Shown here piece after piece: positions 3,053 through 24,258 of a DNA stretch of 64,000 nucleotides. The notes beneath the pieces were generated by a model, which saw only the letters and a list, made by a program, of their open reading frames with translations, made no database searches and was not told the DNA's origin. Source of the stretch: a phage. The position numbers were made by a program, and so were the translations under genes. Every line of letters begins with the position of its first letter. Position 1 is the first letter of the stretch. The stretch lies in NCBI GenBank assembly GCA_024683775.1, contig GCA_024683775.1_4106.1; one strand, written 5' to 3'.

Positions 3053-3640
3053 ATGTTTTTAAAAAATACTTATGAATTAATTAAAATGCTTCAAAATATG
3101 AATTCCGGTGGTCTATTCCCGTATCACTCTGAGGATAAAACTCATCGTTTAGTTTTGAAATTGGATGAAACTGGGCGTATTGCATCACTAAGAACGGCTG
3201 TTCCAAATATAGATCAAGTAATTATGCCAACAACTCCGAATTCAGGAACTGCTGTTAATACACCACAAACATATAACTCAAACTACCAACACCCACAGAT
3301 GTATACGATTAGTACTCCATCTATTACAAGAGTTGCTTGTATTGTTAATATAAAAGTATCAAAAGACTATCGTGATTTAATATCAGTTGAATGGTCAGAA
3401 CTAACATCAGCATTTGCAAACAATGGGCTTGTTGTAACAAATGCTGGTATAGCAGTCAATGCAAAAGAAGGACAACAGATAATGAGTGCGTTGTATCTTA
3501 GCAATGGTTATGTTATCATTAATGGGAAGTTGTATTGTAACACCGAACCAGAAGCACTCACTGAAGATTTGATTAGTGAAAAAGAATATAGTCTTCTTGA
3601 AATTATGAATTTAAAAAAGGTATATGAAAACTGTGATTAG
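3053..3640 (+). CDS. hypothetical protein
   Basis: 195 aa ORF in the co-directional gene train; no recognisable motif. Confidence 0.5.
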   Translation: MFLKNTYELIKMLQNMNSGGLFPYHSEDKTHRLVLKLDETGRIASLRTAVPNIDQVIMPTTPNSGTAVNTPQTYNSNYQHPQMYTISTPSITRVACIVNIKVSKDYRDLISVEWSELTSAFANNGLVVTNAGIAVNAKEGQQIMSALYLSNGYVIINGKLYCNTEPEALTEDLISEKEYSLLEIMNLKKVYENCD

Positions 3641-20170: not shown

Positions 20171-20345
20171 GACATTTGATGAGTGGTTTAATCTACACTA
20201 TAATATAAATGCAGCAGATATATACTATTTTAAGCTTGAATTGTATATATCATTGCGTAACCCAATCGAATACTATAACAACATCATCAATTGTGATGAT
20301 TTTGGTACATATTTTAGTATAGCAGTCATGGACAAAATAAGATGA
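20160..20345 (+). CDS. small hypothetical protein
   Basis: 61 aa ORF. Confidence 0.45.
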   Translation: MHPKTFDEWFNLHYNINAADIYYFKLELYISLRNPIEYYNNIINCDDFGTYFSIAVMDKIR

Positions 20346-20512
20346 CACACAAAGAATGGTTAGATGAACTAAAATTTAAACATAATCCTTTTGGTTTTGG
20401 TATACGCCAAGGTCATTATGATGTGTTAAAAGATAAACAACTTTTCAAATCATTTGTACTTGATGAGGATAGTAATCACTGGTACATCTATGAGCTTGCA
20501 ATTAGGAAATAG
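20342..20512 (+). CDS. small protein of the 'MTH(E/K)EW' family (56 aa; not in ORF track)
   Basis: ATGA overlap upstream. The N-terminus MTHKEWLDELKF resembles the three tandem ORFs at 21846-22332. Confidence 0.4.
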   Translation: MTHKEWLDELKFKHNPFGFGIRQGHYDVLKDKQLFKSFVLDEDSNHWYIYELAIRK

Positions 20513-21622: not shown

Positions 21623-21738
<116 letters not shown>

Positions 21739-21742
21739 AAAT

Positions 21743-21828
<86 letters not shown>

Positions 21829-21845: not shown

Positions 21846-22006
<161 letters not shown>

Positions 22007-22010
<4 letters not shown>

Positions 22011-22167
22011 CACATGAAGAATGGATGAATGACATTAATTTTAGATATTCGGGTATCGGTAAATGGCTAAAGTATCATTGGGAATTCATTTCAGAGCCAC
22101 ATCTGTATGATAAACTTATCAACGATCCAGCATATGAAATGTACTTAATTGAACTACTGGTACGAAT

Positions 22168-22171
<4 letters not shown>
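22007..22171 (+). CDS. 54-aa 'MTHEEW' family protein, tandem copy 2
   Basis: ATGA overlap upstream. Nearly identical to copy 1 over the first 19 codons. Confidence 0.5.
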
Positions 22172-22763
<592 letters not shown>

Positions 22764-22767
<4 letters not shown>

Positions 22768-22792
22768 CTAAATAGTTCAGTACTGATATAAT
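22764..22792 (+). promoter_or_regulatory. sigma70-type promoter, copy B of the repeated promoter
   Basis: TTGACT at 22764-22769, 17 bp spacer, TATAAT at 22787-22792. Confidence 0.6.
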
Positions 22793-22798
22793 GAATTC

Positions 22799-23140
22799 CA
22801 CAATCAGACGTATATGGTGTAAGTTACGTCGATGTAATCCAGAACAAGATCTCTGGTACTCTAGGAAGTGGTGAATGTTAACCTAGACGGGTTTGATAAT
22901 TGGACGATAGGCAATTATTACTTGACTAGCAGGTTTAAACTAGAGGTGACAGTCCTTTACCAAACTGGAAAACCGGATGGACTTTTATTTAAAAGGGTAA
23001 GGCGTGGAAATATGTTTACAGTAGTTGCTTTTAGTAGCCTGTACGCCCCACGTAAAGGTAGCCGAAAGGCAAGTTAAAACGGGTGGTTATAAAGCTGAAT
23101 TAACAGCGGCGTTTAAAAGCGTCACCATCCATTTTTTTTA
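22799..23140 (+). ncRNA. candidate structured non-coding RNA (~340 nt), promoter-driven and ending at a T8 run
   Basis: No convincing ORF. It has its own promoter. GNRA hairpin GCC-GAAA-GGC. Nested stem CCAC...GTGG. Terminal stem GGGTGGT...ACCATCC followed by TTTTTTTT. Confidence 0.45.
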
Positions 23141-23155
23141 ATTAAAGTTGGTGAT

Positions 23156-23533
<378 letters not shown>

Positions 23534-23544
23534 GATTAAGTACT

Positions 23545-24109
<565 letters not shown>

Positions 24110-24123
24110 ATCAGTACTTTATT

Positions 24124-24258
<135 letters not shown>

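Follow-up and report, generated by a model that had tools for sequence, protein, structure and literature searches.

What does a phage keep in a stretch of about 340 nucleotides that lies directly behind a strong promoter, in the neighbourhood of tRNA genes and a homing endonuclease gene? This question is raised by positions 22795-23140 of a 64,000-nucleotide stretch of phage DNA (contig GCA_024683775.1_4106.1 of NCBI GenBank assembly GCA_024683775.1), here called the window, to which all positions refer unless another phage or locus is named; the features of the RNA region lie on its + strand. A first-pass annotation, made from the letters alone, had proposed a single structured RNA of about 340 nt. 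The best explanation of 22795-23139 is a non-coding transcription unit with one promoter, two separable structured RNA genes and a Y-shaped stem with a U-tract at its end. The region is thus composite: module A (22795-22982) and module B (22996-23131) are separated by an AU-rich spacer (22983-22995), and we treat the two modules separately because A occurs without B in phage EJP2 and B without A in phage JNE01, findings that the idea of one long RNA does not survive. Module A is almost certainly a structured non-coding RNA family. Its structure, its strand, its absence of coding capacity, its modularity and its place among the tRNA genes of phage lineages that are unrelated to each other are documented below, together with a more conditional account of what the RNA may do.

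Structure and coding potential of module A

The minimum free energy fold of the whole 342 nt was not significantly better than those of shuffled sequences (z = -1.68 and -1.50 for the two strands). Folding of the single sequence therefore proves nothing, and the support for a structure comes from the comparison of homologues. By BLAST, positions 22700-23200 of the window share 97-99.6% identity with jumbo phages of Escherichia and Salmonella from the 121Q/PBECO4 group, several of them classed as Asteriusvirus. Among phage genomes, the RaK2-like phages of Klebsiella (Alcyoneusvirus) match with ~81% identity over exactly 22795-23137, while their flanking ORFs (open reading frames) do not align. 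T5-like Proteus phages (Novosibvirus) and T4-like phages that infect Proteus, Morganella or Shigella (Bragavirus in those records that name a genus) have a shorter segment, ~22794-22981, at 85-91% identity, and the core of module A is matched as well in T4-like Aeromonas phages of two genera. Together with metagenomes, these are the carriers of module A: Asteriusvirus, Alcyoneusvirus, Bragavirus, the two Aeromonas genera and Novosibvirus.

From these homologues an alignment of 17 distinct sequences from about six lineages was assembled, and 53 proposed base pairs were tested in it. In the plain MAFFT alignment 88.7% of the cells were paired and 31 of the 53 pairs had changed on both sides, compared with a mean of 16.8 in shuffled controls; none of 500 shuffles reached the observed value on any of five measures. 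When the 3' partners were moved by 1-3 columns, the paired fraction was 23-42%. An alignment fitted to the model gave 90.0% paired cells and 32 pairs changed on both sides, with the slid controls of the two alignments spanning 21-42%; the counts for the pseudoknots are free of bias from this fit because pseudoknots are not part of the covariance model. The first-pass annotation had named a lack of covariation among homologues as fatal to its RNA; covariation was found at 31-32 of the 53 pairs, and the general reading as a structured RNA, non-coding and transcribed from the + strand, was confirmed.

The comparison resolves module A as an RNA of ~188 nt with seven nested helices, two firm pseudoknots and a probable third. 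Near the 5' end, hairpin P1 (22803-22812 with 22825-22833, one bulge) carries a 12-nt loop containing UAUGGUGUAAGU; seven to eight of its nine pairs have changed on both sides, and the whole helix is replaced in copy a of metagenomic contig L034 (ACUAAAAUA/UAUUUUAGU). Hairpin P2 (CCAG 22839-22842 with CUGG 22853-22856) has a loop of variable length and a covarying stem, which appears as CCAG/CUGG, CCG/CGG, UCAG/CUGA, CCUU/AAGG or CCUAC/GUGGG. In P3 (UCUAGG 22860-22865 with CCUAGA 22882-22887) all six pairs have changed on both sides, and the stem is extended to 8 bp in the Aeromonas phages and in L008, an uncultivated viral contig. It is followed by the junction J3/4 (CGGGUUU, 22888-22894), in which the alignment columns of CGG are invariant, and by hairpin P4 (22895-22902 with 22912-22919), which has five to six of seven pairs changed on both sides and a conserved GACGAUA in its loop that is present in 17 of 17 sequences.

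The 3' half of the molecule contains the two firm pseudoknots. PK1 (22920-22943) is of the H type, with stem S1 formed by ACUUG (22920-22924) and CAGGU (22930-22934), stem S2 by CUAG (22926-22929) and CUAG (22940-22943), and an A-rich loop L3. S1 is paired in 98.8% of the cells, with pair types CG/GC/AU at one position and also AU/CG, and S2 in 100%, with UA replaced by AU in five sequences and with GC and GU pairs as well. Behind it, hairpin P6 (GGUGA 22945-22949 with UUACC 22957-22961), taken from the same 17-sequence alignment, offers the GUCC of its loop (22952-22955) to the 3'-terminal GGAC of the module (22979-22982), forming PK2; this pairing is found in 98.5% of the cells and covaries, its outer two pairs being GC/AU/GU/UA and UA/CG/UG. 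Between the two strands of PK2 lies P7 (CUGG 22965-22968 with CCGG 22973-22976), which is weak or absent in the Aeromonas phages. Two competing pairings were dropped: a helix given by RNAalifold as 74-76:206-208, in favour of PK2, the one that covaries, and the register CUGUCC:GGAUGG of PK2 itself, since only GUCC:GGAC covaries. The TATGG element noted in the first-pass annotation is present (22812-22816); most of the real helices and all of the pseudoknots differ from those listed there.

A third pseudoknot, PK5', would join CCAC near the 5' end (22798-22801) to GUGG in the P3 loop (22868-22871). A duplex of only 4 bp does not reach significance in any sequence taken by itself; it is the compensatory changes between lineages that make the pairing probable, namely CCAC:GUGG in the enteric phages, GCAC:GUGC in the Aeromonas phages, CUAC:GUAG in L008 and CCUCA:UGAGG in contig L036. 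A misalignment by one column leads to its being under-counted in the covariation totals.

Outside the helices, the bases CGG of J3/4, GACGAUA of the P4 loop, UUGAC..GCAG, GAGGU and AUGG are invariant. They are clustered in the 3' half, which is the pattern that would be expected of a tertiary core or a binding site. Several G-U pairs of the + strand are likewise invariant or common, for instance a UG in 17 of 17 sequences in PK1-S1; on the other strand they would be A-C mismatches, and they therefore fix the strand of the module A RNA as +.

The longest ORF of the region, a frame of 69 aa with a GTG start (22868-23077), is not a gene. The first-pass annotation had described its start and length correctly and had called it the only ORF, which it is not, as a 38-aa ORF with a TTG start (23025-23141) also exists. 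The GTG codon is the 3' strand of PK5', and the frame is broken by stops or frameshifts in RaK2, PM2, Mm5, Pm5461, L008, the Aeromonas phages, L026, L027, L034 and L036. Taken at face value, the mere existence of this ORF and of homing endonuclease genes nearby would speak for a 69-aa protein or for a site that acts at the level of DNA, such as an endonuclease target or a recombination site. The chance of either is negligible: most homologues have an interrupted frame, the ORF runs across two modules that are found apart elsewhere, a Pfam scan has no match for it, and the substitutions preserve base pairing, including the strand-specific G-U pairs, and not codons. The comparison instead supports a non-coding region with a conserved, covarying RNA structure on the + strand.

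Genomic context and distribution of module A

Module A is preceded in the window by a sigma-70 promoter (22764-22792) that consists of TTGACT (22764-22769), a 17-nt spacer with the TG of an extended -10 element, and TATAAT (22787-22792), with 11 of 12 matches. Judged by this spacing, transcription is predicted to start at about 22799-22800. The promoter shares the 22-mer TTGACTAAATAGTTCAGTACTG with two other sites in the window, the three copies starting at 22343, 22764 and 24125 (two mismatches in the last), and three copies were reached in no shuffle of the window; the early description of a region that starts just behind a repeated strong promoter was accurate. The copy at 24125 ends 17 nt upstream of the tRNA cluster that begins at 24164, and the promoter of the RNA region is thus of the same type as that of the neighbouring tRNA cluster. 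ARAGORN found seven tRNAs in the window, one at 21649 and the cluster from 24164 onwards, and a NUMOD4 and HNH endonuclease ORF lies at 23545-24102, in agreement with the neighbourhood reported at first.

In other phages module A occupies the unannotated gap between tRNA-Gly and tRNA-Asp in Proteus phage PM2 and Shigella phage SdyM_006, and lies between tRNA-Leu and tRNA-Ser in T5-like Proteus phage 1, between tRNA-Pro and tRNA-Thr in Aeromonas phages 65, CC2, AS-zj and P19, and immediately ahead of tRNA-Glu in Morganella phage Mm5. (The GenBank record of the last, PP397179, vB_Mm5, has its tRNA genes on the strand opposite to that given by ARAGORN, which looks like an annotation error.) In metagenomic contig L036 it follows tRNA-Leu within an array of 13 tRNAs, and contig L034 has two diverged copies, one on each side of tRNA-Arg. 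EJP2 has a promoter of its own, then module A (916-1105 of locus L209) and then directly tRNA-Ser, with no module B. In all loci module A has the strand of the tRNAs. Like the stable RNAs of T4 and T5 as a kind, its homologues are non-coding genes within phage tRNA clusters that are flanked by tRNA genes or abut them. The junctions are tight: in at least six loci module A starts 1-2 bases after an encoded CCA (...CCA-A-AUUCCACAA), and in the Bragavirus-type and T5-like phages its 3' end stops 6-14 nt short of the next tRNA.

A start so close to a tRNA 3' end might be that of a ribozyme which cuts itself at the 5' junction and thereby frees the upstream tRNA, and a core with several pseudoknots, invariant unpaired bases and a size like that of glmS or VS would suit such a molecule. 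We nevertheless regard self-cleavage as highly improbable, as no self-cleaving ribozyme family of Rfam was matched, several copies follow directly on a promoter and have nothing upstream to free, and a 2',3'-cyclic phosphate on the CCA end of a tRNA would be harmful.

The same arrangement invites a reading of module A as a cis element of tRNA operons, that is, a processing or punctuation signal, a folding insulator or a processive antitermination RNA like put of HK022. Module A always stands within or at the head of tRNA transcription units, it is directly downstream of a promoter in the window, EJP2 and L026, and in the window the terminator-like Y stem with its T8 comes after it. Its downstream partner is not constant, however, being tRNA-Asp, -Ser, -Thr, -Glu or -Arg or module B, and its invariant loop and junction bases and its pseudoknots exceed the needs of an insulator or a cleavage signal. 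Both termini are held in pseudoknots, as expected of a molecule that lasts beyond its excision; no likeness to put or to other known antiterminator RNAs was found, the Rfam scans having no match of any kind at module A. A cis element is therefore unlikely.

In the window, the order of promoter, structured RNA, terminator-like stem with T8 and a 125-aa ORF (23156-23533) could also be that of a riboswitch-like or attenuator leader that acts on this ORF through the Y stem. Three arrangements make this scarcely credible: in other phages module A stands between tRNA genes with no ORF downstream, in EJP2 the B2/Y motif of module B lies between two tRNAs, and phage phAPEC6 has the same ORF behind the same promoter with B deleted and A cut down to 36 nt. 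Module A does not show the consistent position in a 5' untranslated region, with an expression platform, that marks a riboswitch. The leader, like the protein and the DNA-level site considered above, is effectively excluded.

The deletions in question delimit the modules. In JNE01 (locus L207, ~578-760) the same promoter is joined straight to module B (GGTAAGGCG...), and module A, which JNE01 lacks, behaves as an indel of ~200 nt whose boundary falls in the AU-rich spacer. In phAPEC6 (L208, ~914-950) the first 36 nt of module A are kept and joined to the downstream ORF, and all of module B is gone. In RaK2, a 43-nt insert with a promoter of its own (TTGAAC-17-TATAAT) separates A from B. Because phAPEC6 has lost B and all but 36 nt of A, the two modules are dispensable accessories.

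A covariance model, R1, was built from the module A alignment, and all members of the family score 125-214 bits with it. It found no second copy in the window and no further members in a set of 95 loci that pattern matching had drawn from bacterial and viral collections. A pattern scan of genomes gave at least 120 matches, and all 80 among the matches listed were chance by the covariance model, as were the viral pattern matches that are not members. About 77 phage records matched a query spanning both modules and about 70 of them carry module A; four pattern scans of IMG/VR added one uncultivated contig (L008) beyond the known isolates, a fifth added none, and a metagenome pattern scan contained five further true copies among 13 matches. 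Module A had no match in 5,426 complete E. coli genomes or in the PLSDB plasmids. By these searches the family is real but narrow. No description of the module A RNA was found in the literature, and in 40 records among the matches listed, as well as in the loci opened, its position has no feature or just a 'hypothetical protein'. The same is seen for the whole of 22795-23140, for which GenBank annotation is blank in some records and 'hypothetical protein' in others.

Possible function and relation to known RNAs

How might such an RNA be made and used? Module A could travel as a passenger of tRNA operons, transcribed from a promoter of its own or cut by host enzymes out of the polycistronic transcripts of tRNA genes. 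On the 5' side, a cut would fall in the A/U-rich CCA/A-AUUCC junction, which resembles an RNase E site; on the 3' side, RNase P would cut at the next tRNA, and trimming by exonucleases would then be halted by the terminal pseudoknot. The 3'-terminal bases pair into the P6 loop, and the 5' tail probably into the P3 loop. With both termini in pseudoknots, exonucleases should be blocked and the excised RNA should persist. The persistent RNA could then act in trans through its conserved, folded 3' core by binding a protein or another RNA. That module A RNA is processed, stable and active in trans seems likely to us, and for the complete account, a stable trans-acting RNA derived from tRNA-type transcripts, which is the best overall explanation, we put the chances at somewhat better than even. 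As module A is an accessory that moves with tRNA genes and homing endonucleases in virulent phages, one may guess that, as a decoy or sponge, it ties up some factor of the host or the phage that acts on tRNAs, translation or RNA-based defence; this guess is a tentative one, and we hold it to be rather less probable than not by a good distance.

Several points weigh against this account. The ends of the RNA, its stability and its processing are predictions from sequence. A start of transcription at 22799-22800 would cost the transcript of the window one or two bases of the 5' strand of PK5', a pairing for which three compensatory changes, each specific to a lineage, are the support, and P7 lacks conservation in the Aeromonas phages. 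The enteric versions may owe their identity of 85-91% to recent transfer and not to selection; real constraint is visible solely in five to six divergent lineages. Finally, the natural deletion variants imply that the RNA is dispensable under some conditions.

The pairings of the single-stranded termini with hairpin loops could also be made between molecules. GOLLD and ROOL, phage RNAs 'often near tRNA islands' and of unknown function, form cages through intermolecular contacts (PMC12286853), and covariation is blind to the difference between intra- and intermolecular pairing, so that PK5' and PK2 might hold together an RNA-only homo-oligomer of this kind. Module A is three to four times smaller than these RNAs, however, and unrelated to them in sequence and structure, and intramolecular pairing would be the simpler arrangement and is plausible on steric grounds; an oligomer is in our view very doubtful. 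The resemblance is one of kind: GOLLD and ROOL too are structured RNAs of phages and prophages that are rich in pseudoknots. With 580-800+ nt they are much longer than the 188 nt of module A, which has no Rfam match to either, and they occur mostly in phages of Firmicutes and Actinobacteria and in marine phages, in contrast to the virulent phages of Enterobacterales and Aeromonas that carry module A. The first-pass annotation had pointed to large phage non-coding RNAs reported from such a context; by the Rfam scans the region is not related to GOLLD or ROOL. Among the papers found, RNA-seq was available for the related phage PA5oct, in which four non-coding RNAs are reported.

No known family accounts for the region, GOLLD, ROOL, tmRNA, RNase P, 6S, Y RNA-like RNAs, riboswitches and self-cleaving ribozymes included. 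The Rfam scan recommended in the first-pass annotation was run: with Rfam 15, the whole window at gathering score returned tRNAs only, positions 22600-23300 at E up to 10 gave only a 17.5-bit chance match to P31 (gathering score 40), and seven divergent homologues at E up to 1 had nothing overlapping module A. ARAGORN found no tmRNA in the window and nothing at all in 22795-23140, where the Rfam tRNA and tmRNA models also had no match, and a tmRNA or tRNA identity of module A was ruled out accordingly. Some resemblances to other RNAs were dropped as well, namely to CR-I/CR-V of RNase P (GAGGUGACAGUCC, GAAAACCGGAU), to the group I P/Q/R/S elements and the tmRNA 5' region (GACGGGAUUUG), to a Shine-Dalgarno-like GAGGUGA, to the T-box UGGN motif and to CsrA GGA loops, since none of the models gave a score and each motif is either part of a covarying helix or not conserved in the Aeromonas versions. 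H-type pseudoknots are familiar from the pseudoknot strings of tmRNA and from the pseudoknotted acceptor arms in the tRNA-like structures of plant viruses. In architecture alone, module A is like them in pairing a loop to a downstream strand, in its short L1 and the A-rich L3 of PK1, and in having a pseudoknot at its 3' end (PK2); it differs in that it has no tRNA-like domain, CCA end or tag reading frame.

Small stable RNAs without explanation have been known from phage tRNA clusters since the 1970s, first RNA C and D of T4 and the RNAs of T5, later GOLLD and ROOL. The genes rnaC (species 1) and rnaD (species 2) of T4 are annotated in the record as small, stable RNAs; they are non-coding, 119-139 nt long and on the tRNA strand, and lie inside the tRNA cluster beside a homing endonuclease gene. 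Module A has no meaningful MAFFT alignment with them, and R1 finds nothing in the T4 tRNA region. By our own reading of its sequence, rnaC ends in a tRNA-like T-arm (GGTTCGAATCC), of which module A has none. In T5, RNA I, III, IV, 1, 2, 2H, 3 and X are annotated as 'stable RNA with unknown functions' and lie scattered between HNH endonuclease genes, promoters and tRNA genes; module A has the same kind of place in the T5-like Proteus phage. They are not homologous to it: in the T5 tRNA region (28-42 kb) R1 reaches no more than 10 bits (E = 0.14, filters off). Neither the T4 nor the T5 RNAs have Rfam families, scans of both regions returning tRNAs only, and a missing Rfam match is therefore by itself no proof of an undescribed RNA. 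Taken together, the comparisons make it well supported that module A is a new RNA family within a known, unexplained class of stable RNAs from phage tRNA regions. It would be a much bolder proposal, and one we consider quite improbable, that module A represents a new functional class, either a catalytic or self-assembling RNA or an anti-defence RNA that mimics or traps a component of tRNA-directed immunity or RNA processing, spread between unrelated virulent phages with tRNA genes by exchange that homing endonucleases drive.

With module A, this old class gains an RNA for which comparison alone has yielded a well-determined structure. Jumbo Rak2-like, T4-like and T5-like phages, whose hosts are Enterobacterales and Aeromonas, have it in common, and it thereby offers a tractable handle on an old question: its small size suits it to probing, mutagenesis and the determination of its structure, its phages grow on E. 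coli, Proteus and Aeromonas, and JNE01 and phAPEC6 as natural deletion variants, together with EJP2, are ready genetic controls within Asteriusvirus. Several 'hypothetical protein' calls in GenBank overlie module A RNA and call for correction. More generally, phage tRNA islands emerge as mosaics in which RNA modules, namely A, B1 and the Y-junction, can be used again and again.

Module B and the surrounding genes

Module B begins with B1 (22996-23052), a long irregular hairpin with moderate support from an alignment of three to four lineages that includes RaK2, JNE01 and Kuravirus. Its helices, read by eye and uncounted, are GGCG 23001-23004 with CGCC 23044-23047, UACAG 23017-23021 with CUGUA 23039-23043 and GUUGC 23024-23028 with GUAGC 23034-23038; a 12-nt asymmetric internal loop is conserved, and the terminal loop varies from 3 to 5 nt. 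In Kuravirus, where B1 has 81% identity, the basal helix GGCG/CGCC is replaced by GCUG/CGGC, with one compensatory and one wobble change. In the Kuravirus phage vB-EcoP-XT32, B1 lies at 1574-1627 of locus L007 within an ORF-poor stretch of ~650 nt (1227-1875) that has further GACGAUA and ACAGAUGG words; its sole annotation is a 'hypothetical protein' on the minus strand, which is probably spurious, and the stretch may hold other structured RNAs.

The second part, B2, starts with a GNRA hairpin, GCC-GAAA-GGC (23061-23070, with flanks 23053-23080), that is unchanged in RaK2, JNE01 and the tRNA spacer of EJP2. The first-pass annotation had seen this hairpin correctly and had nested it inside a helix CCAC...GTGG; the latter is not supported, as its GTGG (23083-23086) sits in the closing helix of the structure that follows. 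This is a Y-shaped three-way junction with a U-tract (23081-23139), in which GGGUGGU (23081-23087) pairs with ACCAUCC (23124-23130) by both fold and covariation and encloses hairpin 1 (GCUG 23094-23097 with CAGC 23104-23107) and hairpin 2 (23108-23112 with 23119-23123); an A and T8 (23132-23139) come 3' of it, as had been noted for the end of the region. Across five sequences, 97.5% of the cells of the junction were paired and six pairs had changed on both sides, with 31-56% paired in slid controls. A 7-bp closing helix followed by T8 is what a terminator would show, and a simple scan makes no call because the stem is a branched three-way junction. Y-junction and T8 in the window probably also terminate transcription; in EJP2 the motif stands between tRNAs without a U-tract.

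B2 occurs alone between tRNA-Ser and tRNA-Arg in EJP2, as a paralogue after tRNA-Gly in RaK2 and in one IMG/VR contig. Copies of the Y motif were seen at 23081-23130 of the window, at ~2940-2990 and ~3327-3376 of the RaK2 locus (L002), at ~440-495 of L206 and, on the - strand, in L182. A closing helix of 7-9 bp is followed in it by UAUAAA, by a hairpin of the invariant sequence CUGAAUURACAG and by a second hairpin, which is variable and covaries; closing helix and second hairpin together make ~12 bp, equal to the length of a tRNA acceptor/T minihelix. RaK2 has a further RNA of ~160 nt between tRNA-Gly and module A (2834-2995 of L002), a paralogue of module B called 'C'. It starts with AAAUUCAACAGG, which resembles the start of module A, AAUUCCACAA, and the common start suggests a shared signal for 5' processing right after the CCA of a tRNA.

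Two observations concern the DNA upstream of the RNA locus. Directly after tRNA-Ser, at 21743-21821 on the + strand, lies a tRNA-like gene without a D-arm. Its acceptor stem has 7 bp, its variable arm is long and its anticodon loop is CUUCUAA (UCU, Arg-like). A sensitive scan with the Rfam tRNA model gives it 32.6 bits; it was missed by ARAGORN and by the default scan of the whole window. Just upstream of the RNA locus, three tandem, overlapping and paralogous ORFs of 54 aa (MTHEEWM...; 21846-22010, 22007-22171 and 22168-22332), with a fourth relative at 20342-20512, look like an expanding family of small genes.

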